Below, in pieces: positions 28,071-61,345 of a stretch of 64,000 nucleotides of DNA (positions are counted from its first letter, which is position 1; every line of letters begins with the position of its first letter). The notes beneath the pieces are model-generated. The model searched no databases, was not told the DNA's origin, and was given only the letters and a program-made list of their open reading frames with translations. Source of the stretch: Candidatus Saccharimonadota bacterium (GTDB taxonomy: Bacteria > Patescibacteriota > Saccharimonadia > Saccharimonadales > UBA10212); assembly GCA_016187125.1 (NCBI GenBank), contig JACPKF010000001.1, positions 102,931-166,930 on the forward strand. Direction: 5' to 3'. Position numbers and translations under genes: made by a program.

Positions 28071-28646
28071 TTATTGAACGAGGGTGGCTGTTTTGAAAGC
28101 TTCCGTAAGTTCTGTAAATAACTTACCAGCTTCATGTTGAGCCAAACCTGCGTCTACTTTTGGATTAGTGCAAGTAGTGATACCGTTTGGTTGACTCCCC
28201 TCAATATAAAAATTATCGAATTGTTTTAATGGTGGACCCTCAGTAGGTCCGGCAGTGTTTGGTGAATACTGTCCGTCAAGTTTATCAATAGCACCGAAAT
28301 TACCAGGACTATTGGAATCTACCTTTTGGTTATAACATTGCTCGACGGCGTCACTCATAGAGGGGCTCCCTAGATAAAGGACGGTGGAAGTACCGCCCTG
28401 GTTATTTTTACGACTCTCAACTTTGTAGCTTAGGCCTTTCAAAGCATCAGGTAAGGTTATTTTTACTCCCAGTTCCTTAAAGACAAACTCGTTATCCTTT
28501 TTAGTAGCAAGTGGTGGTGTTTTAGAATGTTGGGCGTGCCAGACGTAGTAGCCGCCAAAGCTAATAACAGCTAAAATCAGAACAATCAACAGTGACTCTA
28601 CTAGCCCGAAGCCTACCGAAACTTCCCTTGCCCGCCTAAACTTCAA
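28071..28646 (-). CDS. Type IV pilin-like protein (prepilin-type N-terminus)
   Basis: Basic leader MKFRRAREVSVG, then FGLVESLLIVLILAVISF (G|F...E at +5, hydrophobic helix). TTG start. Confidence 0.7.
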   Translation of the reverse strand: MKFRRAREVSVGFGLVESLLIVLILAVISFGGYYVWHAQHSKTPPLATKKDNEFVFKELGVKITLPDALKGLSYKVESRKNNQGGTSTVLYLGSPSMSDAVEQCYNQKVDSNSPGNFGAIDKLDGQYSPNTAGPTEGPPLKQFDNFYIEGSQPNGITTCTNPKVDAGLAQHEAGKLFTELTEAFKTATLVQ

Positions 28647-28830: not shown

Positions 28831-29106
28831 TTGATAGTGTTAAGTTTTCGTCAGTTGGAAAAACATGTGAAGGGCTTTGCTAATCACCGCCGTATTCAAA
28901 TCATGGTATTGCTGAGCGCGGAGCCTGGACTGTCTTTGCTGGACATAGCCGAGAAACTAAAAATCAATTTTAAAACCGCAGGCGACCATACCCGGCGCCT
29001 ACATCATGCCGGTTTGATTACTAAAAAACATCGTTCAGCCGCTGTAGCTCATGAAGTCAGTCATCGAGGCAAAGTTGTTCTGAAGTTCTTAAGAACATTA
29101 GAATAG
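28831..29106 (+). CDS. ArsR/SmtB-family winged-helix transcriptional regulator
   Basis: FANHRRIQIMVLLSAEPGLSLLDIAEKLKINFKTAGDHTRRLHHAGLI (HTH_5-like). 91 aa. Confidence 0.8.
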   Translation: MIVLSFRQLEKHVKGFANHRRIQIMVLLSAEPGLSLLDIAEKLKINFKTAGDHTRRLHHAGLITKKHRSAAVAHEVSHRGKVVLKFLRTLE

Positions 29107-29133: not shown

Positions 29134-29706
29134 CTATTCGTAAATCTTGTGGTAGGGTTTGTGGAGTTTATCGAGTAACTTGATAAGTTTGCCAACTAAT
29201 ATGTCTGGATCTTTTTCAAAAATTACAAATTCTGGATCAATATTAGGTAACGTATCTACCAGCTTAATAATTTCGTCACTGATGCCACCGGCGCCTTCTA
29301 AAAAAGCAATTGGGGTGTGGGTTTCCATAGCGATAGTAAACTCATGCAGTGTACCCAGACGGCCGCCAATACTTATTACTGCGTCAGCCGAATTAATCAG
29401 CAGGGCGTCGCGGCCAACATAGTGCAGGCCCGTATATAAAATTAGATCAAAACAACCTGTTGGCAGGCGATATTTTAGCACGTGCTCAACCTTAGTAGCC
29501 GCCGGGCTAATCCCCAAGCTAGCCGCGCCGCCGGCTTTTTTATAGGCCAGCGCGGCATATTCCGGCAGGCCAGACGTGGCACCGGTCAACAAACTATGGC
29601 CGGCTTTAGCTAGCGACTTACCGATAGCACTTGCTAACTCCTTTCCCTGCTCAACGGTCTGGCCTTTGGCGCTGCCGGATACACAAATTTGATATTTTGT
29701 GCTCAC
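29134..29706 (-). CDS. LOG / TIGR00725-family Rossmann protein (nucleotide N-ribohydrolase-like)
   Basis: ICVSGSA...LLTGATSGLPEYAA ... ISIGGRLGTLHEF (matches the LOG motif PGGxGTxxE). GTG start with GGAGG 6 nt upstream, abutting the stop of the preceding gene. Confidence 0.7.
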   Translation of the reverse strand: MSTKYQICVSGSAKGQTVEQGKELASAIGKSLAKAGHSLLTGATSGLPEYAALAYKKAGGAASLGISPAATKVEHVLKYRLPTGCFDLILYTGLHYVGRDALLINSADAVISIGGRLGTLHEFTIAMETHTPIAFLEGAGGISDEIIKLVDTLPNIDPEFVIFEKDPDILVGKLIKLLDKLHKPYHKIYE

Positions 29707-30765
29707 TTAAGCCTCCGCGTATTCAACCACCAGTTTAGTCGATAAACTAGGCTTTTTTAGTTTGGCAGTTCCGGGAGACAACTGGTTGGAAAGTTTGGAT
29801 AAAATTTCGGCGTCTGTAGATATGTAAGCCTGATAACGGCGTAAAAGCTCTTTCCACAAAGACTCTTGACCAAAATGCACCGATCTACTGCCATAATCAG
29901 CCGCTTGTAAGTGACTCAAAGCTATATCTTTGAGGTTAAGTGAAACTGCCTCGCCACCGTGTTGAGATATCAGATGCGCGGTGTTAAACCACCAATTAAG
30001 GACTGGATGTAAGTTGGCCATTACTCTTGGCTGGCTCTTTACGCCTAGGACTTCCGCGGCATCTGCTAGCAGCAGGCTTAGATTTAAAACGGAGGCTTTT
30101 TCAAGTTTTGCTGCCGGCCATAGCGCGACCGCACCAACTAACTTGCTAGCGGCGGTAAACCGAGCTGGCCCTGTCCAGAACCTTAAACGCTCATTCGACA
30201 GCTTTGCAAGATTAAGCGGTTGCATAATCCAGTTGACAGTAGTTAAACTGTTCGCCGATCTTGTCAAGGCTTTGCTCCATGTAGATGATTCTACAACTGA
30301 GGCCATTAAGTATATCTCAGATACTGCTTCCCTTTTAAGCAAAGAGTTAACCGAGCGGTAATTTAGCAGCTTCATTAATTTCTTGGGCGGAAGTGCCAGG
30401 AGCAGCTGTTTGGCGGCAGTCGGTTTTAAGGCCCACACTTCTTGGCCTTTGAATAGGTGTTTGGTTAAATCAACCGCCAAATCCATTTTACGGTCCAAGC
30501 TCATGTCTATATCCGCGCCTATAGCTCGATCTATCTGGCTAGTATCGTTTCTGAAACGAGCTAGCAGCGCGTGATAGAGTTCCTGGCTGGTTGTATCGTC
30601 AGGGTCAAGACCTAACTGAGTCATTTTTTGGCGAAGCTTCAGCCCGTTGTCAGCCACTAAACGCACATCTTCGCTGGGAAAACCAGCCAATTTTTCCAAC
30701 TCCCAGACAGCCTCGCCAATAAGTTGTTCGGGCTTGCCCAGCATGACAGATAAAGTTTTTGACAT
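29707..30765 (-). CDS. Hypothetical protein, 352 aa, no recognisable motif
   Basis: Long ORF tightly packed between the PfkB kinase (4-nt gap) and the LOG-like gene (0-nt gap). No TM segment and no catalytic motif that I can name. Confidence 0.6.
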   Translation of the reverse strand: MSKTLSVMLGKPEQLIGEAVWELEKLAGFPSEDVRLVADNGLKLRQKMTQLGLDPDDTTSQELYHALLARFRNDTSQIDRAIGADIDMSLDRKMDLAVDLTKHLFKGQEVWALKPTAAKQLLLALPPKKLMKLLNYRSVNSLLKREAVSEIYLMASVVESSTWSKALTRSANSLTTVNWIMQPLNLAKLSNERLRFWTGPARFTAASKLVGAVALWPAAKLEKASVLNLSLLLADAAEVLGVKSQPRVMANLHPVLNWWFNTAHLISQHGGEAVSLNLKDIALSHLQAADYGSRSVHFGQESLWKELLRRYQAYISTDAEILSKLSNQLSPGTAKLKKPSLSTKLVVEYAEA

Positions 30766-30769
30766 CAGG

Positions 30770-31777
30770 TTATTTTAGTCTTTCTGGATGATACCATGGC
30801 GGCGCCACTCGCAAATACTGCTCGATCTCCGCCTGAGTCAGAAGACCGGCCTGGGCGCCGACGCTCTGGACCACGCTCATAGCGTTGATCGGCGCCCAAA
30901 GTAGTGCGCCTTGTATGTCGGCCCCTTGCATAATGGCTGCCACAAAGGTTGAGGTAAAAGCATCGCCGGCGCCGGTGCGATCATAAGGTGGTTTATGGTC
31001 CGGGTAGATCGGCATTTTGTACCTGTTTTGGCCATCGCTAGCATAGGCACCGGCGTGCCCATCACTAATCATCACGATTTTAGGTCCGAGTTCATGTAGA
31101 CGATCAAACAAATCATGAATGTCATGATGATTGCCGCCCGAAATGGTTGTAGCTTCTTCCCGATTAACGGCTAATATTTCGCTGCGCTGATAGATTTTTT
31201 TCAAGCGGGTCGGGCCAGCCTTAATCTGAAAAGTCCCAGGCTGAAAGGCCAACTTTATTGGCGGATGCCGTTCTAACCAAGCCACTAGCTGGTCGTGATA
31301 TTGTTCAGTATGTTGGCTAACCGAACTAAAATAAATCCATTTAGGGATGTCAATGATGCGGAAACGCGGCCAGTGGTAGGCATACTCCTCGTGCTTGATC
31401 AAGATCGTCCGGTCTTCTTTATACCAAAGCACGTAATGATAGTTGCTTTTTTGGCCGTGGTTGATATGAACAAAACGAGTATCAACGTCGGCCTTATGCA
31501 AAGCAGCTAGAATGTCGCGGCCCCAATCATCATCGCCGACATTAGAGACTAAACCACTGTCAAAACCCAATTTGGCAAAGGCTACAGAAGCGTTGGAAGC
31601 ATTGCCGACTGCTGGAACCACTTCGGCGAAATCAAAGGGTATTTTTGTGCCAAAAGGGATCTTTAATACTAGCCCGGATGGCGTCTTTTCCACATGCTCT
31701 AACTCATCGAACAACTTAATAAAGGCATCAATTACAACGTCACCCACCGCTAGTACATCAAGCTGTTTTTGACTCAT
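30770..31777 (-). CDS. PfkB-family sugar/nucleoside kinase
   Basis: N-terminal GDVVIDAF, NASNASVAFAKLG, C-terminal DRTGAGDAFTSTFVAA (PfkB signature 2). Confidence 0.85.
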   Translation of the reverse strand: MSQKQLDVLAVGDVVIDAFIKLFDELEHVEKTPSGLVLKIPFGTKIPFDFAEVVPAVGNASNASVAFAKLGFDSGLVSNVGDDDWGRDILAALHKADVDTRFVHINHGQKSNYHYVLWYKEDRTILIKHEEYAYHWPRFRIIDIPKWIYFSSVSQHTEQYHDQLVAWLERHPPIKLAFQPGTFQIKAGPTRLKKIYQRSEILAVNREEATTISGGNHHDIHDLFDRLHELGPKIVMISDGHAGAYASDGQNRYKMPIYPDHKPPYDRTGAGDAFTSTFVAAIMQGADIQGALLWAPINAMSVVQSVGAQAGLLTQAEIEQYLRVAPPWYHPERLK

Positions 31778-31880
31778 ACTTCTTACGGCTATTTTAGCAT
31801 AAGCTCAGTAGTGAGCCCGCCTTGGGTGGATCTACTACTGAGAAAAATCTCTTTCAATCTAAAATCCTAATGGATCTTAA

Positions 31881-31988
31881 TTTTACCCCACTTTTGGTCC
31901 GAGCCTACTTCGCCGTAGTAGGCTACGATCTATTCTCCGTAGTACTACGAAGGACGAAAGGCTGAATCGGACCAAATGTGGGGTAAAA
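31881..31988 (+). repeat. Element R2 copy 1, nested in a 22-bp inverted repeat
   Basis: ttttaccccacttttggtccga (31881-31902) and tcggaccaaatgtggggtaaaa (31967-31988) flank GCCTACTTCGCCGTAGTAGGCTACGATCTATTCTCCGTAGTACTACGAAGGACGAAAGGC. That core recurs at 41941-42006. Confidence 0.75.
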
Positions 31989-32079
31989 AGATAAGTCAGT
32001 ATCATTTAGCTAGATAAAAGAAGTTGCGGCCTTCGATCGCCACTAACTACCAGGCTTTGACTACGTTCTTCCAATAGGC

Positions 32080-32991
32080 TTATGATTTAGCCTTACCGGC
32101 AGAATTGAACATATCTATTTTGCTTTCGACTACTTTTTGGACTTCGTCAATGACCTTGCCCATTAGTTTGACTACGGCATATTCAGATTTATTTTCGGCT
32201 AGTACCTTTTCTAGCGTGTTGCGATAAGCGATGCGCAGGTCGCTGTTGATGTTGACTTTGGTCACACCGATCTTAGCAGCCTCGATAAAATAATGGGCTG
32301 GCGTGCCACTACCGCCATGCAAACTTATGTTGCAATCAATCACCTGTCGAATCTGTCGGAGTAAATCTAAATCTAGCACTTTGGGGACTGGATAGAGCCC
32401 ATGCAAGTTGCCTATTTGAGCGGCAAAAGTGTCTATGGCGGTTCTATGCACAAAATCAGCCGCTTCTTCGGGCTTAGTCTCATATTTTTTGACTTCATCA
32501 TAATCAATATTTTCGGTGTGCAGGTTGGACGAACCCAAAAAGTAACGTTCTTCGGCTTCAACTAATGCGCCGGTTTGCTTGGCGGCTGCGACCACTTGTT
32601 TGGTGCCGGCAATAATTTCTTCGCGCGAGGCCTCATGTTTAGCCTGGGAAATGTCAATGTGGATACACTCAAACCCAGCCTTAATACCGGCGATAGCATT
32701 CTCCACCGTTGGGCTGTGGTCTAGATTAATGTACATTTCAATTTCATACTCAGATTTATAGTTATCAACTAGATCCCGAATATTTTCTAAACCTAGGGCA
32801 TCGACTTCTCCCTTACTGAGTTCTACCAAAACGGGTGCATTTTTAATTCGAGCCGCTCTTGCTACGGCAATTAAGGTTTCCTGATTATCGAGGTTAAAAG
32901 CGCCCAGGGCAAAATGCTCTTTGCGAGCCCGTTCAAAGCAAGCCCGGGCTTTTTTACAGTCTTCTCTAATTTGAGTTACATTACGCGGCAT
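32080..32991 (-). CDS. fba: Class II fructose-bisphosphate aldolase
   Basis: FNLDNQE, YINLDHS, ISLHGGSGT, NINSDLR motifs of class II FBA/tagatose-bisphosphate aldolases. Confidence 0.9.
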   Translation of the reverse strand: MPRNVTQIREDCKKARACFERARKEHFALGAFNLDNQETLIAVARAARIKNAPVLVELSKGEVDALGLENIRDLVDNYKSEYEIEMYINLDHSPTVENAIAGIKAGFECIHIDISQAKHEASREEIIAGTKQVVAAAKQTGALVEAEERYFLGSSNLHTENIDYDEVKKYETKPEEAADFVHRTAIDTFAAQIGNLHGLYPVPKVLDLDLLRQIRQVIDCNISLHGGSGTPAHYFIEAAKIGVTKVNINSDLRIAYRNTLEKVLAENKSEYAVVKLMGKVIDEVQKVVESKIDMFNSAGKAKS

Positions 32992-33477: not shown

Positions 33478-34458
33478 TTAGTGTTTGTGGTTGGTGTGGT
33501 CGGTTAATAATTTTTGGGCAGCTTTGGCAATCGATTCAGCGTCCAGGCCAAAATGTTTAAGTAGTTCTTCCGGCTGACCAGATTCGCCAAACCGGTCTCG
33601 CATACCTATACGCAACATCGGGGTAGGGAGCTGCTCACCTAAAAGCTCGGCAATTGCTCCGCCAAGTCCACCGTTAATTTGGGCTTCCTCGGCCGTTACT
33701 ACATGACGGGTCCGCCCTACACTTTCTAAAATAGTACTATTGTCCAGCGGTTTTAAGGTTGGTACATGAAGTACCTCAGCTTCAATTTTATCTTTAGCCA
33801 GCATATCAGCGGCGGCTAGAGCTTGGTAAGTCATAGTGCCGGTGGCGATGATTGTCACGTCAGTCCCCGGTCGGAAAATATAAGCCTTACCGATCTCAAA
33901 TGGTGTCTGCTCGGTAGTAATAATCGGCGTTGCCTCACGAGCCAAACGCATGTAATTGGGCCTCTTGTCACTAGCCATGGCTATGGTTGCCTTAGCCGCT
34001 TCCAGGCTATCGCAGGGCGCCAGAACCACCATGTTAGGTAAAGCTCTCATTAAAGCCAGGTCCTCCAGCATCTGGTGGGTAGCGCCGTCTGGCCCAACGC
34101 TAACACCGGCATGCGAGCCAATGATTTTTACCGGCCGGTCATTGATGCAAATTGTGGTGCGGATTTGTTCCCAGTTGCGCCCCGGGCTAAAAGCGGCGTA
34201 ACTGCTGACGAAGGGAATTTTGCCCATGGCCGCCAGGCCGGCGCCCATCGTCACTAAGTTTTGTTCGGCAACGCCGACCTCTATAAAACGCTCCGGAAAT
34301 TCCTGGGCGAACAAATGCATCTGGGTTGATTCAGTTAAGTCGGCGCAGGCCGCTACTACATTTTCATCTCGTTTGCCGGCTTCTAACAGACCGCGGCCAA
34401 AACCTTTGCGGATCGGCTCCAGCGCCAGCGGTGGTTTAGCCAAAAAGAGCTCAGCCAT
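33478..34458 (-). CDS. tkt: Transketolase, C-terminal (pyrimidine-binding) subunit
   Basis: FIEVGVAEQNLV, GPDGATHQ, C-terminal domain. GGAG SD upstream of the ATG at 34458. Confidence 0.93.
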   Translation of the reverse strand: MAELFLAKPPLALEPIRKGFGRGLLEAGKRDENVVAACADLTESTQMHLFAQEFPERFIEVGVAEQNLVTMGAGLAAMGKIPFVSSYAAFSPGRNWEQIRTTICINDRPVKIIGSHAGVSVGPDGATHQMLEDLALMRALPNMVVLAPCDSLEAAKATIAMASDKRPNYMRLAREATPIITTEQTPFEIGKAYIFRPGTDVTIIATGTMTYQALAAADMLAKDKIEAEVLHVPTLKPLDNSTILESVGRTRHVVTAEEAQINGGLGGAIAELLGEQLPTPMLRIGMRDRFGESGQPEELLKHFGLDAESIAKAAQKLLTDHTNHKH

Positions 34459-34554: not shown

Positions 34555-35412
34555 TCATTGGTGTTCGCTCCGGATCTTGCCTTGAAGAGTGCGCAGCTCG
34601 TGCAAAGCTTTTTTGGCTTCATCGTGATTGGGCGGTTTACCATGCCAGTGAAAATCATACTCCATAAAATCGACACCCTTGCCCGGTATGGTATGGGCTA
34701 GAATAACCGTTGGTTTTTCGACGATGGCTTTGGCCATAGCAGCAGCATCAATCACCGCTGCTATGTCGTTGCCGTCAATTTCCAGGACGTGCCAGCCAAA
34801 AGCCTCCCATTTATCACGTAAGTTTTCCAGCGGCATGACGCTTTCGGTGGGCCCATCTATCTGAATATTGTTTCGGTCAATTATGGCTATTAAGTTATTT
34901 AGCCGATACTTGCTGGCTAACATGGCCGCTTCCCAGCTGTTGCCTTCGTCTAACTCGCCATCGCTCATGGCCGCATAAACCCAGCGATGACTTGCCCCAT
35001 CCATCCTGAGAGCCAGTGCCATACCGCAGGCTTGGCTAAGACCACTGCCCAGCGGTCCGCTAGTTGTCTCCAGCCCGGGCAACCTTAGCCGTTCTGGGTG
35101 TCCTTGTAACCTGGAGCCTAGACGGCGCAGAGTCATTAACTCTTTCTTGGGAAAGTAGCCGGCGTGAGCCATAACCGCATATCTAACCGGTACGCAGTGG
35201 CCGTTGGATTGCACCAAAATATCGCGCTCCGGCCAGTCAGGGTTTTTGGAATCGTGCTTCAGAATCTGAAAATAAAGCGCCGTATATATATCGGCCAGAC
35301 CAAGTGGCCCAGCGGAGTGCCCACTACCGGCCTGTTCCAGCATTTTAACTATGTCTATGCGAATATCGTTCGCTTTTTGCTGTAACTCCTCAATCGTTAA
35401 ATCAGTACTCAT
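34555..35412 (-). CDS. tkt: Transketolase, N-terminal (TPP-binding) subunit
   Basis: GSGHSAGPLGLADIYTALYF and SDGELDEGNSWEA. The ATG at 35412 is preceded by AAGGAG (MSTDLTIEEL), so it is preferred over 35460. Confidence 0.93.
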   Translation of the reverse strand: MSTDLTIEELQQKANDIRIDIVKMLEQAGSGHSAGPLGLADIYTALYFQILKHDSKNPDWPERDILVQSNGHCVPVRYAVMAHAGYFPKKELMTLRRLGSRLQGHPERLRLPGLETTSGPLGSGLSQACGMALALRMDGASHRWVYAAMSDGELDEGNSWEAAMLASKYRLNNLIAIIDRNNIQIDGPTESVMPLENLRDKWEAFGWHVLEIDGNDIAAVIDAAAMAKAIVEKPTVILAHTIPGKGVDFMEYDFHWHGKPPNHDEAKKALHELRTLQGKIRSEHQ

Positions 35413-35465
35413 ACTCCTTATGACTATACTCACTTTTACTCCTCTAATCAAAACAGCCAATGTAT

Positions 35466-35499: not shown

Positions 35500-36066
35500 A
35501 TGGGAAAATATATCTGGCCCCATCAGTTGGGAAATGCAACCACGTGGTATTTGAGAGTACTGTCAGGTAAACAGAGGCTTAGCATTGATGCTATGATGGC
35601 CGAACAAATACACGCTAAAACCCATCGGCACAACCGAATCCAAATACGACGCCAGTTAGGTTTTATGTTAAGTAAAGGTCTAGTGGAAAAAAGAGGCAGC
35701 TATCGTGCTGCCGAATATCAAATATCCTCTCGCGGTACAGCAAGGCTCGAAGAACTTACTTTATCCCAGCTGCAAGCAACATCTTCAGTTTGGGATGGAA
35801 AGTGGAGGCTAGTTTTTTTTGATATTCCGGAGGTATCGCGCTCGGCCCGCGACCAAATCAGGCGACTCCTCAAGGAACTTGGGTTTAAACAGTTGCAGCT
35901 AAGCGTGTGGGTCCACCCTTTGCCCTGCTTAGACTATTTCCAAAAAATCCAAGAAGCATATGGAATTAAAAATCATTTATTTTTGGCGCAAACTTCTGAA
36001 ATCAATATCCCTGACTCAGTTCTTGCCCACTTCCGACGAAACTACCCAAAACAAAAGATAAAATAA
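35500..36066 (+). CDS. PaaX-like winged-helix regulator with Cas2-like C-terminal domain
   Basis: wHTH region (RRQLGFMLSKGLVEKRG) and WDGKWRLVFFDIPEVSRSARDQIRRLLKELGFKQLQLSVWVHP (PaaX/Cas2-like fold signature). Confidence 0.7.
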   Translation: MGKYIWPHQLGNATTWYLRVLSGKQRLSIDAMMAEQIHAKTHRHNRIQIRRQLGFMLSKGLVEKRGSYRAAEYQISSRGTARLEELTLSQLQATSSVWDGKWRLVFFDIPEVSRSARDQIRRLLKELGFKQLQLSVWVHPLPCLDYFQKIQEAYGIKNHLFLAQTSEINIPDSVLAHFRRNYPKQKIK

Positions 36067-36145: not shown

Positions 36146-36844
36146 CTAGGTCGTGTCAGTTTCTTCAGCAATTCGTTCCAGTGCATGAAAAGCCCGCTCG
36201 GGATCATCAGCGTTTTGAATAAAGCCGCCAACATTGAGTACGTCAACACCGCCACTAACAAGCTGCGCAATGTTCTGGCTGTTAATGCCACCATCCCAGC
36301 CGATTTCCAGATCATGCTTATGGTTTTTGAGAAAATCAACTTTCTTGAGCAGATCAAGATCGGCATGGCCGCCAAATTTGCCTAGGTCGCCACTAAAAAT
36401 CAAAACGTGGTCGATATGATAAAGGGCCGGCACAATAGAAGCTGGATGTGAATTTGGCAGTAGGGCGATACCGATTTTAACGTTTCTTTTGCGGCAAAGA
36501 CGGGCGATTGGGTCAAAGCGGCCGCTAGCCTCGGCGTGAATTATTAGCATATGCGGACCGTGCTCCAACAAGGCCGCGACGGCTGACTGCGGATTTTTAT
36601 ACATCAGATGGAAATCGGCTTGCAGACCCACCGGCCACCAGGTTTGCTCCGGGTTAATCGTTCGAGGCGCGGCAAAAATCCCGTCCGTTAAGTCAATCTG
36701 AATGCGATGGGCAAAAGGCGCGATTCTCTCCATTTGAGTCCTATACTGCTCATCGGTTGATGCGCCAGTTATGGTCGGACAAATAACCGGCATCTCAGCT
36801 ATTTTTATCGAGTTTTTCATGGCGGCGGATATGACGCGGCTCAT
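36146..36844 (-). CDS. rpe: Ribulose-phosphate 3-epimerase family protein
   Basis: Ribulose-phosphate-binding barrel pattern (IQIDLTDGIF, HAEA, IGIALLPNS, VLIFSGDLGKFGG, GWDGGIN, NVGGFI). The real start may be the ATG at 36793, 1 nt after the rpiB stop. Confidence 0.75.
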   Translation of the reverse strand: MSRVISAAMKNSIKIAEMPVICPTITGASTDEQYRTQMERIAPFAHRIQIDLTDGIFAAPRTINPEQTWWPVGLQADFHLMYKNPQSAVAALLEHGPHMLIIHAEASGRFDPIARLCRKRNVKIGIALLPNSHPASIVPALYHIDHVLIFSGDLGKFGGHADLDLLKKVDFLKNHKHDLEIGWDGGINSQNIAQLVSGGVDVLNVGGFIQNADDPERAFHALERIAEETDTT

Positions 36845-37289
36845 CAGAAAATGGAGTTTCCAGCCACAGTTTTATTACAGACTTCATTTCTTCTAAGGTG
36901 ACGTAAGAGGCGGCCAAACTTAACATGTTGGCGTCATTGTGCTCCCGCGTCCGGCGAACAATTTCATAAGGGTTATGGCTAACTTCGCCACTAGCATCGA
37001 CGACTCCTTTGGGAACTGCCGGACCGTAAAATACCCCGCAGCGTACTCCTTTAATCCGGTTAGCGGCCATGGCTTCGCCTTGTCCACTGCGTCCCAAAAT
37101 TATCCCAAATGGGCATTCGCCGCTGGCTACGGCCCTAGCCGCCGGAATCACAAAATCCGGATAGTCATCGGCCGGGTCCAGTGATTTGGGACCGAAATCA
37201 TGTACCTCATGGCCAAGCGACTCTAAATAACTTTTTAGCTCTTTGAGTTGCTCAAAACCGGCGTGGTCAGTAGCCAAAGCTATGTTCAT
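36795..37289 (-). CDS. rpiB: Ribose-5-phosphate isomerase B
   Basis: MNIALATDHAGFEQLKELKSYLESLGHEVHDFG and GILGRSGQGEAMAANR (RpiB/LacAB family). Confidence 0.92.
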   Translation of the reverse strand: MNIALATDHAGFEQLKELKSYLESLGHEVHDFGPKSLDPADDYPDFVIPAARAVASGECPFGIILGRSGQGEAMAANRIKGVRCGVFYGPAVPKGVVDASGEVSHNPYEIVRRTREHNDANMLSLAASYVTLEEMKSVIKLWLETPFSDEPRHIRRHEKLDKNS

Positions 37290-37531: not shown

Positions 37532-38863
37532 CTAATAACGGCGATAGCCCTCCAATTTAGTACCGCTGCTGACGCTAGGCTCAGACGAGGTATTGGCGCT
37601 GGGATCTAGGGGTTTATCTTGCCTTGGCTGATCAGTAGCAGCCCCACCTATAATGTCTGGTGGAGCCAATAATTCTTCTGGCTCAGGGGCTTCGAGCAAA
37701 GGCTCATCATAAGTTACAGGTACCAGAGTTGGGGACTGAGGTGGGGCCTTTTTTGACATAGGCTGATCCTCCACTGGCTGGCCTTTAGACTCAGCTTCTT
37801 GGAGCAGCCTCCCAACGTCGGCGGTCATTTCCACTAAACGGTTGGAGTATCCCCATTCATTGTCATACCAAGCTATAACTTTGACCATATTACCGGCCGC
37901 TACTTTAGTTAAGCCAAGATCAACAATCGCCGAGTGACTGTTGCCTATAAAGTCGCTGCTAACCAACTCATCCTCTGTGACATCCAAAATTCCTTGGTAA
38001 AAAGGCTCAGCAGCGGCTTTTTTAAAAGCCTGATTGACTTCGTCAACCGTCACATCACGCTTGGTAATAACCACCAGATCAATTAGCGACACAACCGGTG
38101 TTGGTACGCGGATACTCAAGCCTTCAAATATACCTTCGACTACCGGCAGAGCTTGGGCCACTGATATTGACGCGCCAGTGGTAGTCGGCACGATGTTGCT
38201 AGCGGCGTTGCGAGCTTCGCGCAGATCTTTGGCCGGAGCATCTTGCAACCGCTGAGAGGCGGTATAGCTGTGAACCGTCGTCATCATAGCTTTCTCTACA
38301 CCAAAAGACGCTTCAATTACGGCCAAAACCGGAGCCACGCAGTTAGTCGTGCATGATCCGTTATTAATAATTTCAGCGGCGTGATCGAGCGCTTCCTCGT
38401 TAACACCTAAAACTACTGTTGCCGAACCATCGCCCTTAGCCGGAGCGCTGATAATTACCCTTTTGGCGCCGGCTGTGATGTGGGCTTTGGCTTTGGCCGG
38501 GTCGGTAAACAAGCCGGTGGATTCAATCACTACATCGACTGCCATGTCTTTCCAGGGCAGCTGGGCTGGGTCTTTTTCGGCTAGTACCCGGATTTTTTGG
38601 CCCTCGACTATCAAATTCTGCTGGTCAAAATCAACCCGGCGGGGATATTCGCCGTAGTTGCTGTCGTGTTTTAAAAGATGAGCCAGGGTCTTAGTATCGG
38701 CCAGGTCATTAACGGCCACGATTTGCAGATCGCTGCGCTCAAAAGCTATCTTGAAAGCGTTGCGGCCAATACGTCCAAAACCGTTGATGGCAATTTTGAT
38801 TTTTGCAGCGACCCCACCTTGATCCATAACAGAATTATATAACGCTTGTGTTAAGTGCGACAA
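37532..38863 (-). CDS. gap: Glyceraldehyde-3-phosphate dehydrogenase with about 90-aa Pro/Glu-rich C-terminal extension
   Basis: INGFGRIGR, SCTTNC, WYDNEWGYS. The canonical fold ends near residue 352 of 443. The real start is possibly the ATG at 38827. Confidence 0.93.
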   Translation of the reverse strand: MSHLTQALYNSVMDQGGVAAKIKIAINGFGRIGRNAFKIAFERSDLQIVAVNDLADTKTLAHLLKHDSNYGEYPRRVDFDQQNLIVEGQKIRVLAEKDPAQLPWKDMAVDVVIESTGLFTDPAKAKAHITAGAKRVIISAPAKGDGSATVVLGVNEEALDHAAEIINNGSCTTNCVAPVLAVIEASFGVEKAMMTTVHSYTASQRLQDAPAKDLREARNAASNIVPTTTGASISVAQALPVVEGIFEGLSIRVPTPVVSLIDLVVITKRDVTVDEVNQAFKKAAAEPFYQGILDVTEDELVSSDFIGNSHSAIVDLGLTKVAAGNMVKVIAWYDNEWGYSNRLVEMTADVGRLLQEAESKGQPVEDQPMSKKAPPQSPTLVPVTYDEPLLEAPEPEELLAPPDIIGGAATDQPRQDKPLDPSANTSSEPSVSSGTKLEGYRRY

Positions 38864-38886: not shown

Positions 38887-39489
38887 TTATTTGACTTTTT
38901 TGTCGTCTACTTCACGACCTTCGAATTCCGGTAAGTTCAGAAGTTGGTCTATGGTTTCCAAATTTTCAAAAATCCCATGGGCCTCAGCCAGATAGCCGGC
39001 TTTATTCAAAACCTGCTTTTTTACTTCTTCAAAGGCCAGCTTTTGGACCACAATCTTTTCGCCGGCGTCCAATTTTGGCTCGGTTTGCTTGTCTGCGTCC
39101 CAGGCAAGGTAGTAATAGATAAACCACTCTATTTTTTTATGCGGCTGAACAACTTTTACCAGCCGCCAATTACTGAATTCATAGCCAGTCTCCTCCAGAA
39201 TTTCGCGCCTAGCAGCGCTCACCACATCCTCGTCTGTTTTATCTACTCGGCCACCGGGAAAACTTAGGCTCAGGCCGCTATGCGGCTGCTGTTCCTTCAG
39301 CACTAAAATATCGTCACCCACTAGCGATATTACGATCACGGTATCGGGACGCTTGAGCATCTCAAAGGTGTAGCTTGAGCCGTCAAACATGGTTTGCGGC
39401 CACTGGTAAACGTCAAATATCTGGCCCTCAAAAACTTTTTTTGCCTCCTCAGGGATAAGGACAGCATTTTTTGGCACTACTTTTTTCAT
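38887..39489 (-). CDS. NUDIX hydrolase (ADP-ribose pyrophosphatase-like)
   Basis: Nudix box GGRVDKTDEDVVSAARREILEETGY. Confidence 0.85.
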   Translation of the reverse strand: MKKVVPKNAVLIPEEAKKVFEGQIFDVYQWPQTMFDGSSYTFEMLKRPDTVIVISLVGDDILVLKEQQPHSGLSLSFPGGRVDKTDEDVVSAARREILEETGYEFSNWRLVKVVQPHKKIEWFIYYYLAWDADKQTEPKLDAGEKIVVQKLAFEEVKKQVLNKAGYLAEAHGIFENLETIDQLLNLPEFEGREVDDKKVK

Positions 39490-39491
39490 CT

Positions 39492-40037
39492 CTAAGCGTT
39501 ATTGGCACGCTCTAAAGATTCGGTAATCACTTGGCGGGCTTCGCTGGCATCGCCCCACCCCTTGAACTCAACTTTTACACCCTGCCAATTATTCTTCCAG
39601 TCTTTAACATGAGTGTAAAAATGCTCGACACGCTTTTTGAAGTTGGGCTCTAGATCTTCTACGCTTTTAATATGGTCTTTGCTAATATCATCAGTTGCTA
39701 CACAAATAAGTTTTTCGTCCTCGTCTCCGTCGTCAATCATAAAAAGCACACCAATTGGGCGAGCCGACACTAAAGTACCAATCGCAATAGGTTCGTCGAT
39801 GACAAGTAATGCGTCCAGCGGATCGCCGTCTTTACAAAGAGTCTGGGGAACATAGCCATAGTCTGTTGGATAACCTAAAGTTGTAGCATTCACACGATCT
39901 AAAATTCTCCGGCCAGTTTTTTTGTCGGTTTCATATTTATTCCTACCGCCGCCTTTTTGGATTTCTATAATCAAATTCACCTGATCTGGAGCACTTTCAC
40001 CGGCAGTAACTTCTTGATATGCCACTTTTCCTCCCAA
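39492..40037 (-). CDS. ppa: Inorganic pyrophosphatase (family I)
   Basis: IEIQKGGGRNKYE, YGYVPQT, DGDPLDALLV, IDDGDEDEK. Confidence 0.93.
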   Translation of the reverse strand: MGGKVAYQEVTAGESAPDQVNLIIEIQKGGGRNKYETDKKTGRRILDRVNATTLGYPTDYGYVPQTLCKDGDPLDALLVIDEPIAIGTLVSARPIGVLFMIDDGDEDEKLICVATDDISKDHIKSVEDLEPNFKKRVEHFYTHVKDWKNNWQGVKVEFKGWGDASEARQVITESLERANNA

Positions 40038-43228: not shown

Positions 43229-45757
43229 TCATACTCTTTCCGCCTTAAATTTTACTTTGGCAGCGGCCGCTACCTTATCAAGTAGCGTGTTAACTTCGGC
43301 GGTAGTTAAGGTCCTATCTGGATGAGCGATGACTACGTGCCAGGTTGTTTGTTTGAGCTTTTTATCACCCGGCTTTTGGTAAATATCCAGAGTTCGCAGC
43401 CAGTGTGTATAACCATGTCCCTTAGAAAGATCGCCAAGAGACTTTAGTATAAAATCCGTCAGTTGGCTGTAGCCAAGATTGATACTTGTCCGCAAACATA
43501 AGTCTTGCTCCACGCTTGGGAAGCGGTTCAGTGAATAGTATGTTGGTGGTTGAGTTTGCATCAACAAAGCATTTATATCGATCTCGGCTTGCGCCGTGAA
43601 GCTAGGCAATTTAAGTATTTGTTTCAGAACTTGAGTCGGTTCGCCGACAAGGCCAATAACTTCATCTTTATGGTAGATGATGGCGCTGCGTTTAGGTTCA
43701 TAAGCTTGGGCCGTCACCTTCCATTGTTTATCTAATTTACTGTCTATAGGTTCATAACGAATTTTGTAGATTCCGATCCCATGTAATAGATTCTCTAGCT
43801 GTTTCTTGGCCGCAAAATATGGCGCTCCTTCTTCTTGGTTCGAATAGTTCTTGGTTGCGACCAAAGCCAGTCTATCTAACTCCTTTGGCAGTTTTTCTTC
43901 GTCGAGAACCCCCTTTATGTGGGTCCGGCCAAGTTCAAAAAGCACAAATTTATCAAAACCTTCCTTGACGTTGGTATGAATTTTTTCCAGCAGGCTCGGT
44001 GCCAGACTCAGACGGTAATATTGTAAGTCCGGGCTCAGCGCATTTCTAATATGGTAAGCGTCCTTGGTGTTTTGGCCGGCTTTTTGGATTAGTGAACTAT
44101 CAACAAAACTATAGGTCAGGACCTCGTTGGCTCCAGCCGAAGACAGTATTTGTCTAATTTTATTTTTAAAAACTAGGCTTTGATTTAGTTTTGCCGGGCT
44201 ATGATCCCGAGTTGGCAGCTTTAGTGGCAGATGATCATAGCCGTAGAGTCGGCCGATTTCTTCGACTATATCTTCGGGAATTACAATGTCTGTTCGCCAA
44301 AATGGTGCGATGATTCGCAGAGAGTCATCACTGCCTATTTCAACTTTGAATTCGACATTTTCTAATAGTTGTTTAGTTTGAGTAGCTGAAAGATTGAGTC
44401 CAAGTCGATCATTGATAAAGCCTAGTTTTGTTTTCACCTGAGATGGTGGAGCCAATTTGCTTTTGAGGTCGTAAACACTGCGGGCCGGCAGACCACCGCT
44501 TTCGTGAATCACAAAATCTATTGCCCTGGCCAACACCCGATCGTTCTGCCATGGCGATTGGTTTTTAGTAAAGCGCGTGGCAGCATCTGTAAATAAGCCG
44601 TGGGTCATAGCTGTTTTACGCGTCGCATTCATGTCAAAATTACCGACTTCCAAAATGATATTTTTGGTATTTTCATCGACTTCCGTATCGGCCCCGCCCA
44701 TAACACCACCAAGCCCAAGAACTAGTCTGTCAGTAGCGATAACTACTTCTTGGCCGCCCAGAGTAACTTCTTTGCCGCCTAAGATTTTAAGCTTTTCGCC
44801 CCTTCGAGCCATCCGGACTGTAATCTGGGCTTTGCTAGTAGCGCTCAGAGCTTTTACTTTATCGTAATCATAGGCATGCAGCGGCTGGGCAGTCTCCAGC
44901 ATTAAATAGTTGGTGATATCAACAATGTTGTTGATGGGACGCACAGCAACGCGCGCTAGAGCGGCTTGGATACCCAAGGACGAAGGACCAACTTTGACAT
45001 TCTTGACTATCTGCATCATAAAGCGTGGTACTAACATTGGTACTTGGTTTTTTACACTCAACAGTTGGTTATCTGTTTTATGTGTGCTGATTGTTTTATC
45101 ACCTAAATACCAATTCGGGGAGCGAAAAACCATGCCCTGGATGCCCGCCAGTTCGCGGGCAATGCCAAGCATACCGAAGCAGTCCGGGCGGTGGGTGAAC
45201 ATCTTGTTTTCGATGTCGATGATGTAATCATCAAGCCCGTAGACTTCGGCGAAAGGTTGGCCCGGTTTGGCCGGTTGGTCAATTACCAAAATGCCGGTGT
45301 GATCGTCACCGAGACTCAGTTCTTTCAAACTGGCGATCATACCGTTACTGACTTTGCCACGAATTTCTCTGGCCTCCAGCACCATCGGGTCTTTATCGAT
45401 CGTGACTGGAACTGTCTGACCGGGCGGGATCCAAGCTACCATTTGGCCAGCTTTGACATTCGGAGCTCCACAGACTACCTGTACCAAACCCTTACTGTCG
45501 TGCCTAACTTTTTTTACTACACCACCGTCGTCAATCATACAGACACTTAACTTGTCGGCATTGGGGTGTTTTTCACAACTCACAACCTTAGCCACGACAA
45601 CGCCTCGATATTTTTTTCCGACATCAACAACTTCTTCAACCGCGCCCAACTGGGAGCCAATTTTTTCAACTAAAGCATCAATGCCTTTTGGCATCGGATC
45701 TGCCGAACATTGGTATTTTTTATTTATTTCACGAATCCAGTTAACCGAGACCTTCAT
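43229..45757 (-). CDS. pheT: Phenylalanine--tRNA ligase beta subunit
   Basis: tRNA-binding OB domain (HPNADKLSVC), B3/4 and B5 domains, FDX-ACB C-terminal domain. 842 aa. Confidence 0.95.
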   Translation of the reverse strand: MKVSVNWIREINKKYQCSADPMPKGIDALVEKIGSQLGAVEEVVDVGKKYRGVVVAKVVSCEKHPNADKLSVCMIDDGGVVKKVRHDSKGLVQVVCGAPNVKAGQMVAWIPPGQTVPVTIDKDPMVLEAREIRGKVSNGMIASLKELSLGDDHTGILVIDQPAKPGQPFAEVYGLDDYIIDIENKMFTHRPDCFGMLGIARELAGIQGMVFRSPNWYLGDKTISTHKTDNQLLSVKNQVPMLVPRFMMQIVKNVKVGPSSLGIQAALARVAVRPINNIVDITNYLMLETAQPLHAYDYDKVKALSATSKAQITVRMARRGEKLKILGGKEVTLGGQEVVIATDRLVLGLGGVMGGADTEVDENTKNIILEVGNFDMNATRKTAMTHGLFTDAATRFTKNQSPWQNDRVLARAIDFVIHESGGLPARSVYDLKSKLAPPSQVKTKLGFINDRLGLNLSATQTKQLLENVEFKVEIGSDDSLRIIAPFWRTDIVIPEDIVEEIGRLYGYDHLPLKLPTRDHSPAKLNQSLVFKNKIRQILSSAGANEVLTYSFVDSSLIQKAGQNTKDAYHIRNALSPDLQYYRLSLAPSLLEKIHTNVKEGFDKFVLFELGRTHIKGVLDEEKLPKELDRLALVATKNYSNQEEGAPYFAAKKQLENLLHGIGIYKIRYEPIDSKLDKQWKVTAQAYEPKRSAIIYHKDEVIGLVGEPTQVLKQILKLPSFTAQAEIDINALLMQTQPPTYYSLNRFPSVEQDLCLRTSINLGYSQLTDFILKSLGDLSKGHGYTHWLRTLDIYQKPGDKKLKQTTWHVVIAHPDRTLTTAEVNTLLDKVAAAAKVKFKAERV

Positions 45758-46197
45758 TCTTTGGTCTCCGTATCTCGTATCTGGTATAAGGTATTAGGTA
45801 TATTGTTTTTTGTTTTAGAAGATTTGATCAGTCCATTTATCAGCTTGTTCGTACGTTCAGAGAGAATAAACAGAGTTTCTGATTCTTTTTCATCTATATA
45901 TCCGAGGTCTGATGAAATTTTAAGCTGATTTTGTAGTTCTGTGAGCGAGCCTTGAGCCATAAAGTAGAATTGATTTTTGTTCTCTCGTGTTTTTCTTGAG
46001 AAGCCTTCCGCAAGATTTGAAGTAACAGAAACTGAAGATCTCCGCATCTGACTCACTAGATTATACTGTTCATTTTTAGGAAATTGCTTGGTTAGTTTGT
46101 ATACAACCAGTGCAAGCTCATGGCCAACTTGCCAGGCGATTAAATCCATAAAGGATTTTATTTTCTGGTTCTCTATACCTGATACTTTATACGTCAT
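45754..46197 (-). CDS. Four-helix-bundle protein (23S rRNA IVS protein / Avd-like family)
   Basis: IKSFMDLIAWQVGHELALVVYKLTKQFP ... SQMRRSSVSVTSNLAEGFSR ... FYFMAQGSLTELQNQL..DLGYI. Overlaps the pheS end by 11 nt and the pheT start by 4 nt. Confidence 0.85.
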   Translation of the reverse strand: MTYKVSGIENQKIKSFMDLIAWQVGHELALVVYKLTKQFPKNEQYNLVSQMRRSSVSVTSNLAEGFSRKTRENKNQFYFMAQGSLTELQNQLKISSDLGYIDEKESETLFILSERTNKLINGLIKSSKTKNNIPNTLYQIRDTETKE

Positions 46198-59995: not shown

Positions 59996-61345
59996 TTATA
60001 CAGATCCCATAACTTGGTCTATCGTGCTGCCGGGTTTGTAGAACTTCAGATCGTCGCTACTCATACTCCAGCTATCTAAAACCGGCTGCAGTATCCGCCA
60101 GCTGGCTAAAACTTCGGCACTGCTAGCAAATAAGCTATGATTGGAGCGCATAGAATCAACAATCACCATCTCGTAGGCGTCCGGCAGTCTGCCAAAGTGC
60201 TGCTCGTAGGCAAAGCTAAGCTTCAGTTTCTGCAACTTCCGTTCATAGCCCGGTTCCTTGACCCATAGATCAATCTCGATTCCTTCCCTGGGCTGGACAC
60301 GCAGGATTAACAGATTAGATGCCGAGGCGCTAGTTTTTTTAAATTGAACTCTGATTTCCGTCAGTTTTTGATCCAAATTTTTGCCAGTCACAAGATGTAT
60401 TGGCACTCCCTCCCAACGGAAGTTGGAAGATTCCAAAGTCAATGAAACAAAAGTTTCGGTAGTCGTAGCAGGATTGTTAACTTCTTTGGTATAGCCCTCA
60501 TATTGGGCCCTATAAACCCGGCCCGGAAACTTATCAGCCGGAATCGGTTGGAGAGCCTCCAGGGCCGCCAGGCGACGTCTTGGGATTTCTTCAAAATCAA
60601 ATATATCGCTACAGGGCTCCATCAGTACCAGAGCTGCCAACTGGAGCAGATGGCTTTGCATAAAATCACGTAGCGCTCCCGTGCCTTCGTAAAATCCAAT
60701 GCGGCCTTCTATGCCTATTGCCTCTGCAGCTACTATCTCAATTTCTTCTATAAATCCGCTATTCCAAACATTCCTAAAAATGGCGTTACTGCCTAAAAAG
60801 ACAGTTATGTTTTGAGCCATTTGTTTAGCCAAATAGTGGTCAATCCTATAAACCTGGTCTTCTGAGTAATGTTTATCAATTTGATCAATAAGTTCTTTGG
60901 CCGAATTCCAGTCCGTGCCGAACGGTTTTTCTAGCAGTAGCTTAGTGTGGTCGCCATTCAGTCCAGCCTTGCCCAAATGTCTGATTATAGGTAACACGGC
61001 AGCTGGCGGAACCGCGAAATAAAAGATAATCTGTGGTGGCTGCGGGAAATCCTTGCCAAGTCCGGCCAACTTTTCTTTTAGTTGCCTATAATCCTCTGCC
61101 TCGGATAAATTCATTTTGTACAGCTCAGTCTGAGTCCTAAGGCTTTGTAAGTGAGGTCCTAAAACCTCTTCCAAATTTTTGTTTTGGCGCGATACGCCTA
61201 AAATACTCAACTTCCCGGTCAGATTAGAAGCCGAACAAATTTGAGCTAGAGCTGGCAGTAAAAAACGGTGCGACAAGTCGCCGCTTATGCCAAATACCAC
61301 TAAGATGGTTGGCGACAGACTTGCTTCTTTGCTCACGATATTCAC
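59996..61345 (-). CDS. zwf: Glucose-6-phosphate 1-dehydrogenase
   Basis: VFGISGDLSHRFLLPAL (NADP site), RIDHYLAKQMAQN (G6PD signature), EKPFG. Confidence 0.92.
   Translation of the reverse strand: MNIVSKEASLSPTILVVFGISGDLSHRFLLPALAQICSASNLTGKLSILGVSRQNKNLEEVLGPHLQSLRTQTELYKMNLSEAEDYRQLKEKLAGLGKDFPQPPQIIFYFAVPPAAVLPIIRHLGKAGLNGDHTKLLLEKPFGTDWNSAKELIDQIDKHYSEDQVYRIDHYLAKQMAQNITVFLGSNAIFRNVWNSGFIEEIEIVAAEAIGIEGRIGFYEGTGALRDFMQSHLLQLAALVLMEPCSDIFDFEEIPRRRLAALEALQPIPADKFPGRVYRAQYEGYTKEVNNPATTTETFVSLTLESSNFRWEGVPIHLVTGKNLDQKLTEIRVQFKKTSASASNLLILRVQPREGIEIDLWVKEPGYERKLQKLKLSFAYEQHFGRLPDAYEMVIVDSMRSNHSLFASSAEVLASWRILQPVLDSWSMSSDDLKFYKPGSTIDQVMGSV

Follow-up and report, generated by a model that had tools for sequence, protein, structure and literature searches.

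The window analysed here, a 64-kb stretch of a Saccharibacteria genome, encodes three consecutive genes on the minus strand: a PfkB-family kinase, an uncharacterised 352-aa protein (designated MID) and a LOG-like protein of the SLOG cluster4/TIGR00725-like type (designated SLOG4). A preliminary description of this DNA had read the trio as a possible linear salvage route. Our comparison of related loci leads us, tentatively, to propose that two functional units share this short operon, namely the kinase, which would act with the adjacent fba gene encoding class II fructose-bisphosphate aldolase, and a MID-SLOG4 pair. MID and SLOG4 are a dedicated pair, a relationship that persists though the subtype, strand and side of the partner gene change. 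The uncharacterised MID family is the new element of the finding; the kinase-aldolase part had already been predicted in the literature, with the kinase as a candidate for the missing kinase step that was proposed for TM7x.

The three genes are closely packed. The kinase/MID junction reads TAA-CCTG-ATG, with a gap of 4 nt, and the MID/SLOG4 junction reads GGAGGCTTAA-GTG, with no gap at all; a GGAGG Shine-Dalgarno sequence lies within MID, and the MID stop codon is coupled to the SLOG4 start codon (TAA-GTG). A genome scan for MID returned 80 loci, nearly all from Saccharibacteria metagenome-assembled genomes, and the order of the surrounding genes was read across these loci by open reading frame (ORF) calling and phmmer. 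Sixty-eight loci had enough flanking sequence on either side. These locus sets are biased towards MID-containing, closely related genomes; individual loci are referred to below by L numbers.

A gene of the LOG superfamily was located directly beside MID in 65 of the 68 loci. In 55 of them a co-directional SLOG4 gene followed MID, and in 10 of the other 13 loci a canonical LOG gene stood beside MID on the opposite strand, five of these being convergent downstream of MID and five divergent upstream, between the kinase and MID. The two replacing LOGs that were scanned matched PF03641 at 99-115 bits and had all of the canonical motifs. Three related loci had no LOG gene beside MID, and in at least two of these a CDP-alcohol phosphatidyltransferase gene was inserted. 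In L081, an 808-kb Saccharibacteria contig, MID was fused to a canonical LOG in an uninterrupted, in-frame gene of 658 aa. An apparent MID-SLOG4 fusion in L068 was rejected, since it spans a masked run of N. The gap between MID and SLOG4 had a median of 6 nt, was 10 nt or less in 33 of 61 loci and was never interrupted, which is the tightest spacing in the block, and coupled stop and start codons were widespread across the loci. When metagenomic loci were anchored on SLOG4, by a search that kept close relatives only, MID was directly upstream in all 47 loci with sufficient upstream sequence; the SLOG4 homologs among the matches listed were only close Saccharibacteria relatives. With a PfkB kinase upstream of MID in 67 of the 68 loci, the trio is co-conserved, the exception being Southlakia, in which MID is absent from the corresponding locus. 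The earlier suggestion that the middle protein is functionally tied to the LOG-like protein is also supported.

MID appears to represent a family that has not been described so far. Automated gene callers placed its start seven codons later (345 aa); the 352-aa start is the one that agrees with the family consensus, MSKxLxxLL. Neither Pfam, NCBIfam nor PADLOC gave a match to MID, and the PADLOC defence models did not match SLOG4 or the kinase. Homologs numbered 83 in a word-indexed search and 909 representatives (at 50% identity) in an exhaustive profile search; none carried a Pfam domain, all informatively named ones came from Saccharibacteria, and the rest included unbinned metagenome sequences. 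They fell into two length classes, of approximately 345 aa and 415 aa, the longer with an insert of about 70 aa. A confident AF2 model was obtained (pLDDT 90.9, pTM 0.86), and Foldseek searches with it returned a best E-value of 0.6 against both PDB and BFVD, the two libraries to which the statement that MID has no fold relative refers. Weak signals (E ≤ 1) collected from 45 MID members included no family shared by more than two of them; single members gave isolated, sub-threshold matches of the helix-turn-helix type (RTP at 5e-4, HTH_11 and GntR at about 0.1). Homology to the domains that flank the LOG core of PpnN was rejected, as hhalign gave the MID profile a probability of 0.2% against E. 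coli PpnN.

MID is also the fastest-evolving gene of the block. Its median identity to the window copy was 34%; the kinase and SLOG4 stood at 61%, and fba, tkt and uvrB at 67-78%. Such a low value suits a protein with an accessory function better than one at the catalytic core. Our best guess is that MID is a partner or regulator of LOG. In one homolog, P0084 (582 aa, on a 5-kb Logan contig), about 165 aa are added at the N-terminus as a mini-copy that consists of the N- and C-terminal conserved segments only; this gives a hint of how domains are arranged in the family.

SLOG4 is assigned by its profile matches to the SLOG cluster4 branch and not to the canonical LOGs. It matched PF18306 at 100 bits (curated cutoff 26.3), fell below the cutoffs of TIGR00725 (70.2 against 106.9 bits) and TIGR00730 (36.1 against 96.35 bits), and gave no match to PF03641 at E ≤ 0.01. 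The nearest PDB entries were 1rcu, 6y01 and 2iz5; the solved relatives thus found nearest include TM1055 (1rcu) and the Chlamydomonas molybdenum cofactor (Moco) carrier protein, with true LOGs more distant. The SLOG4 sequence GGRLGTLHE nevertheless fits the GGxxGTxxE motif, and in 62 orthologs GR99D and GGRxGxLHE122 were invariant; TGATxGLP and SPA....EH..KYRLP are further family motifs. In a profile alignment to canonical LOG, which had no gaps, GR99D and GGRxG(T/S)LHE122 fell on SRK and PGGYGTLDE, so that the catalytic Arg and Glu of LOG correspond to R99 and E122, and its phosphate-binding Thr to T/S119 (residue roles from PMC4979012). Relative to the LOG motif PGGxGTxxE, the Pro is replaced by Gly and the second Gly by an invariant Arg. 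This refines the earlier assignment to LOG/TIGR00725, SLOG4 not being a canonical LOG. Because Arg and Glu are conserved and canonical LOG replaces SLOG4, the alignment favours LOG-type chemistry for SLOG4, that is, cleavage of a nucleoside 5'-monophosphate (NMP) to the base and ribose-5-phosphate. Literature searches turned up nothing on TIGR00725 and no paper that connects Saccharibacteria with LOG-type proteins. A second Southlakia paralog, SEML1_0423 (SLOG cluster4/TIGR00725), adjoins the phosphoribosyltransferase-like SEML1_0424, and both genes were non-essential in transposon sequencing (Tn-seq; PMC10633639 supplements); the pair is a further link of the SLOG4 family to nucleotide and phosphoribosyl pyrophosphate chemistry.

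The kinase is a member of the PfkB family (PF00294, 122.5 bits against a curated cutoff of 25.8) and has the motif DRTGAGDAF, with DRTGAGD, including D272, invariant. More than 7900 homologs were found, with identities of 73-80% among the 120 best listed, and NCBI names proteins identical to the kinase and SLOG4 of the window Candidatus Saccharibacteria bacterium. The kinase belongs to an orphan subfamily, and within Saccharibacteria the conservation of this subfamily is high. No NCBIfam equivalog model reached its cutoff: the best was the ribokinase model TIGR02152 (87.1 against 299.65 bits), and the scores for the ribokinase model NF008353 (62.8 against 341), the IolC model (83 against 300), TIGR03168 for Pfk-2/1-phosphofructokinase/tagatose-6-phosphate kinase (43.9 against 216.4) and the nucleoside-kinase model NF041164 (41.3 against 450) were also too low. 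YdjH, ribokinase, IolC, KDG kinase and fructokinase lay at about the same distance from the family profile; none of them aligned to the lid, which residues 1-55 make up. The nearest solved relatives were sugar and sugar-acid kinases, and none of the 25 PDB matches at E ≤ 1e-8 was described as an adenosine kinase. There was a weak match (41 bits) to MJ0406 (2c49), which was deposited as a sugar kinase and which we take to have nucleoside-kinase activity.

In hhalign comparisons the kinase aligned to E. coli RbsK with a probability of 95.7% over 252 columns and to E. coli Pfk-2 with 17.9% over 60 columns only. The ribose-contact residues of RbsK (1RKD) we take to be N14, D16, K43, N46, E143 and D255. 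In the alignment K43 corresponded to an invariant Asn (N59), N46 to N62 and D255 to D272; in the unaligned N-terminus, matched by eye, N14 corresponded to an invariant Val (V15) and D16 to D17. The strand bearing E143 had no acidic counterpart in the kinase, the iolC alignment giving YFSS for VSGT. Only D16, N46 and D255 are thus kept, and these are general to PfkB kinases. A canonical ribokinase was rejected on the basis of the missed equivalog cutoffs and the changed contacts K43, N14 and E143; many orthologs are labelled ribokinase by JGI. Two tandem PfkB paralogs precede MID in L023 (3426-5781) and L080 (3932-5909); those of L023 scored 452 and 289 bits against the window kinase, and such paralogs may reflect a split in substrate specificity.

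Genomic context and published experiments tell more about the kinase than its sequence does. The kinase and fba genes adjoin in nearly all loci, with a median gap of 59 nt and a gap of 150 nt or less in 47 of 64 loci. The gap from the kinase to MID had a median of 78 nt and was occupied by another gene in 10 loci, and in L081 the kinase gene is located between tktC and fba, apart from MID. In a Southlakia Tn-seq study (PMC10633639, Table S1), normalised reads at T0, T1 and T2 fell from 815 to 344 to 46 for kinase insertions (classed NE/NE/GD), as they did for fba (782, 124 and 19), rpe (295, 75 and 10) and rpiB (118, 31 and 4); for SLOG4 they were 2084, 3498 and 3748 (NE/NE/NE). The fitness profile of the kinase resembles those of fba, rpe and rpiB, and LOG insertions were neutral. 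The kinase phenotype is its own, since insertions cannot be polar on the upstream fba gene and a polar effect on SLOG4 would be harmless; because kinase insertions were deleterious and LOG insertions neutral, the main role of the kinase is not exerted through LOG. In TM7x the gene TM7x_02415, annotated as a ribokinase, is in an operon with fba, was predicted to encode a pfkB-type phosphofructokinase (PFK) and was induced by glucose as measured by quantitative PCR (PMC12815258). Saccharibacteria were reported to lack PFK, and transaldolase was found only in T. rhizospherense among the genomes analysed in that study (PMC6031116). In cellulolytic clostridia and in Entamoeba, PFK together with aldolase is established as a pathway that replaces transaldolase (PMC7029132, PMC12203962). 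The kinase belongs with fba and not with LOG, and it is probably a sugar-phosphate kinase that acts with the aldolase.

Since fba and tkt are universal in the block, the aldolase needs a bisphosphate and PFK is reported missing, the bisphosphate would, on the simplest reading, be supplied by the orphan PfkB kinase. Its most likely reaction would be to turn fructose-6-phosphate into fructose-1,6-bisphosphate for the neighbouring class II aldolase; it may, by inference, likewise turn sedoheptulose-7-phosphate into sedoheptulose-1,7-bisphosphate, which the aldolase would cleave, thereby replacing transaldolase. SLOG4, or the LOG that takes its place, would probably cleave an NMP to base and ribose-5-phosphate, and MID would most likely bind SLOG4 as a regulatory or substrate-selecting subunit. 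The ribose-5-phosphate released could enter the adjacent pathway, so that the kinase would act downstream of ribose-5-phosphate and not upstream of LOG; in this modified form the central idea of the preliminary description could survive. The most extended form of this proposal, in which a MID protein of new fold and a LOG-type nucleotidase form a complex and gate the entry of nucleotide-derived ribose-5-phosphate into a transaldolase-free pentose-phosphate pathway, with the PfkB kinase acting on sedoheptulose-7-phosphate and the aldolase cleaving the product, is doubtful.

Several observations weigh against the two-unit proposal. No sequence model gives the kinase a substrate, in the hhalign comparisons it resembles ribokinase more than E. 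coli Pfk-2, and its structure model was unreliable in the lid and substrate region (pLDDT 65, below 50 in the lid) and was not used for fold search or specificity. The second SLOG4 paralog of Southlakia, SEML1_0423, could mask a LOG phenotype in the Tn-seq data. Southlakia has no MID at the locus, and its kinase and SLOG4 genes are still only 9 nt apart; because they stay adjacent without MID, there may be a kinase-SLOG4 link that is independent of MID. The MID::LOG fusion is a singleton. Many acidic or polar residues of MID are invariant, including E24, D33, D54, E62, K114, D280 and Y311, which would fit an enzyme as well, and the non-enzymatic Moco carrier protein, a near relative of SLOG4, also keeps the Arg and Glu. 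The same syntenic block also contains uvrB and gatCAB, which are functionally unrelated to the sugar genes. With such genes in the frozen block, little about shared function can be concluded from position alone, or from the adjacency of the trio to pentose-phosphate genes by itself.

The kinase can be accommodated in two other ways. A divergent ribokinase that feeds ribose-5-phosphate made from ribose to rpiB, rpe and tkt, with MID and LOG as an unrelated neighbouring module, would agree with the best NCBIfam model (87 bits), the RbsK alignment, the JGI names and the position beside pentose-phosphate genes. We consider it unlikely, as that score is far below the cutoff of 299.65, Asn59 and Val15 (the latter placed by eye) occupy the positions of K43 and N14, the E143 strand lacks an acidic residue, and both the source of the aldolase substrate and the recycling of sedoheptulose-7-phosphate without transaldolase would be left unexplained. 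The preliminary description had instead proposed that the PfkB protein could make NMPs from nucleosides and the LOG-like protein could free ribose-5-phosphate for the pentose-phosphate pathway and glycolysis, with MID as a candidate missing component; a nucleotidase and a specificity factor would be examples of such a component. Parts of that salvage route hold, in that the trio is conserved and translationally packed, LOG-type chemistry is favoured and MID is tied to LOG; the 9-nt spacing of kinase and SLOG4 in Southlakia, the nucleoside kinases among PfkB members with the weak match to MJ0406, and the precedent of a kinase followed by an NMP glycosidase (PsuK/PsuG) are also in its favour. 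Its nucleoside-kinase step is the part that finds no support: the corresponding model scored 41 bits against a cutoff of 450, the closest solved relatives were sugar and sugar-acid kinases and none of the PDB matches at E ≤ 1e-8 was described as an adenosine kinase, kinase insertions were deleterious where LOG insertions were neutral, the kinase lies apart from MID and LOG in other genomes, and the TM7x ortholog was glucose-induced and predicted to be a PFK. As a whole, the salvage route is therefore decidedly unlikely.

Other explanations concern the MID-LOG pair. The two proteins might form a biosynthetic pair in which MID modifies a nucleotide and LOG frees the modified base as a product or signal, like the cytokinin isopentenyltransferase (IPT) and LOG. 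The fusion and tight adjacency, the many invariant acidic and polar residues of MID, its fast evolution and limitation to some lineages, and the dispensability of LOG in laboratory co-culture would all be compatible with this, and modified AMPs are the best-characterised substrates of LOG (PMC4979012); we regard it as improbable, since MID has no similarity to a transferase or other enzyme fold and a constant site in a central-metabolism block would be unusual for signal biosynthesis. A similarly low probability is given to SLOG4 being a non-catalytic ligand sensor or carrier, comparable to the Moco carrier protein or to the ThsA and YpsA SLOG domains, with MID as an effector or regulator, possibly of the neighbouring metabolic genes. 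The nearest solved relatives, among them the Moco carrier protein and proteins without a characterised function rather than enzymes, the invariant Arg at the second Gly of PGG and the weak helix-turn-helix-type matches of single MID members point that way. Against it, SLOG4 gives way to a fully canonical LOG both in the fusion and in 10 loci, its catalytic Arg and Glu never vary, the helix-turn-helix matches were isolated and below threshold, and PADLOC gave no defence-system match. Finally, the trio could be neighbours only through the frozen synteny of a reduced genome, as the presence of uvrB and gatCAB in the block might suggest. This is very improbable, because MID keeps a LOG-type neighbour despite changes of gene type, strand and side and has been fused to it once, and because coupled stop and start codons are widespread.

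The positions of the trio and its neighbours are given below. The coordinates, gap lengths and motifs reported for the trio in the preliminary description were all reproduced, and the identities of fba, the split tkt, rpe, rpiB, gap, the Nudix gene and ppa were confirmed with Pfam and NCBIfam.

Table. Positions of the trio, of its neighbours and of other features in the 64-kb window.
Feature	Positions	Strand	Length, matches and remarks
Small ArsR/MarR-type winged-helix regulator	28831-29106	plus	convergent with SLOG4; distance to the SLOG4 stop codon, 27 nt
Protein with prepilin-like N-terminus	28071-28646	minus	191 aa; between SLOG4 and uvrB
SLOG4 (SLOG cluster4/TIGR00725-like, LOG-like protein)	29134-29706	minus	190 aa; PF18306, 100 bits
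MID (uncharacterised protein)	29707-30765	minus	352 aa; no Pfam match
PfkB-family kinase	30770-31777	minus	335 aa; PF00294, 122.5 bits
fba-kinase spacer	31778-32079	minus	302 nt
Extended -10-like sequence	31791-31802	minus	14 nt upstream of kinase ATG
Hairpin in spacer	31876-31993		118 nt; near-perfect inverted repeat
fba (class II fructose-bisphosphate aldolase)	32080-32991	minus	PF01116, 212 bits
tktC (split transketolase)	33478-34458	minus	PF02779 + PF02780
tktN (split transketolase)	34555-35460	minus	PF00456
PaaX central (Cas2-like) domain gene	35500-36066	plus	PF20803, 82 bits; between tktN and rpe
rpe	36146-36844	minus	PF00834 + NCBIfam; overlaps rpiB
rpiB	36795-37289	minus	PF02502 + NCBIfam; overlaps rpe
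gap	37532-38863	minus	443 aa; Pfam
Nudix hydrolase	38887-39489	minus	Pfam
ppa (inorganic pyrophosphatase)	39492-40037	minus	Pfam
23S rRNA intervening-sequence protein/bAvd-like four-helix-bundle gene	45754-46197	minus	PF05635, 118 bits; 4-nt overlap with pheT start
Glucose-6-phosphate dehydrogenase	59996-61345	minus	

Across environmental Saccharibacteria the block is syntenic in the order ppa-nudix-gap-rpiB-rpe-tktN-tktC-fba-kinase-MID-LOG-uvrB-gatCAB. The gap, Nudix and ppa genes form its upstream end, and their order is repeated in L089, L091 and Southlakia. In the nearest relatives, L089 and L091, a PF00459 gene of the inositol-monophosphatase/fructose-bisphosphatase family is located between nudix and gap (965-1735 and 895-1620, respectively); it fits bisphosphate chemistry, and the block of the window has no PF00459 gene at that position. 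The 64-kb window contains no gene for AMP phosphorylase, RuBisCO, PFK or transaldolase, and the other genes scanned were mostly housekeeping genes.

The spacer between fba and the kinase gene contains a near-perfect hairpin, which is unique in the window and is not conserved in the spacer of the relative L091. The whole spacer folded at -106.7 kcal/mol (z = -6.3 compared to shuffled sequences). The hairpin could act as a terminator or as a site of processing, or it could be a small inserted palindrome. No Rfam family reached the gathering score in the spacer or in seven sources, and the idea that a riboswitch precedes the operon was rejected. An extended -10-like sequence, TTATGCTAAAAT, lies just before the kinase start codon and is the only part of the spacer that was conserved in L091 (GAGCTTATGYTAAAAT; the TTATGYTAAAAT stretch is kept). 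This suggests that kinase-MID-SLOG4 has its own promoter with a very short leader.

Further features of the window were recorded. The glucose-6-phosphate dehydrogenase gene indicates that the first oxidative pentose-phosphate enzyme is present in the organism. The PaaX-domain gene, on the opposite strand from its neighbours, had no matching ORF in the 80 related loci. The ArsR/MarR-type regulator was present in the species of the window (L085-L088) and in none of the 80 related loci. The 191-aa protein has a prepilin-like N-terminus (GFGLVESLLIVLILAV), and a counterpart was found in a minority of related loci and in Southlakia (SEML1_0541). Glyceraldehyde-3-phosphate dehydrogenase, the gap product, continues past the Gp_dh_C domain at its C-terminus for about 110 aa that are rich in Pro, Glu and Ser; the enzymes of L081, L089 and L091 are 334-385 aa long.

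Saccharibacteria and other bacteria of the candidate phyla radiation (CPR) lack nucleotide synthesis, and their genomes have repeatedly been described as lacking phosphofructokinase and transaldolase. The block offers a strong candidate for the missing kinase step, which is extended here to a possible sedoheptulose-bisphosphate bypass. LOG releases free bases and ribose-5-phosphate, so its control matters in an organism that scavenges every nucleotide, and a dedicated LOG partner, if MID is one, would be a new way to regulate or direct LOG chemistry. Gating by MID and LOG, if true, would amount to a Saccharibacteria-specific nucleotide-to-energy route, parallel to the archaeal AMP phosphorylase-RuBisCO route and built from different parts.

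That route, which comprises AMP phosphorylase, ribose-1,5-bisphosphate isomerase and form III RuBisCO in archaea and CPR bacteria (cited in 10.1101/2019.12.18.881540), has the same goal, the delivery of nucleotide ribose to central carbon metabolism. It uses entirely different enzymes, and no part of it is encoded in the 64-kb window. In the PsuK/PsuG and IPT-LOG systems a kinase or transferase makes an NMP and a glycosidase splits it to the base and ribose-5-phosphate; IPT and LOG also occur fused. MID is neither a PsuG nor an isopentenyltransferase, as it gave no such Pfam match, and the genetic data set the kinase apart from LOG. SLOG4 resembles LOG and PpnN in its Rossmann-like SLOG fold family, in having the catalytic Arg and Glu and in a phosphate-binding G-T/S motif, and canonical LOG substitutes for it beside MID. 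It differs in belonging to PF18306 with the motif GGRxG(T/S)LHE, the canonical proteins being PF03641 members with PGGxGTxxE. PpnN has a LOG core with regulatory domains, to which MID is unrelated.

The kinase half of the block can be compared with the bypass formed by PFK and class II aldolase acting on sedoheptulose bisphosphate. The window kinase is not a member of the E. coli Pfk-2/1-phosphofructokinase subfamily (TIGR03168 at 44 against 216 bits; hhalign probability 17.9%), and the known bypass enzymes are pyrophosphate- or ATP-dependent PFKs of the PFKA superfamily, unrelated to the PfkB-fold kinase of the window. The likeness to a pfkB-type PFK with class II aldolase lies in a PfkB-fold kinase beside fba and tkt, in a group reportedly lacking PFK and transaldolase, and in a kinase fitness phenotype like that of fba, rpe and rpiB.

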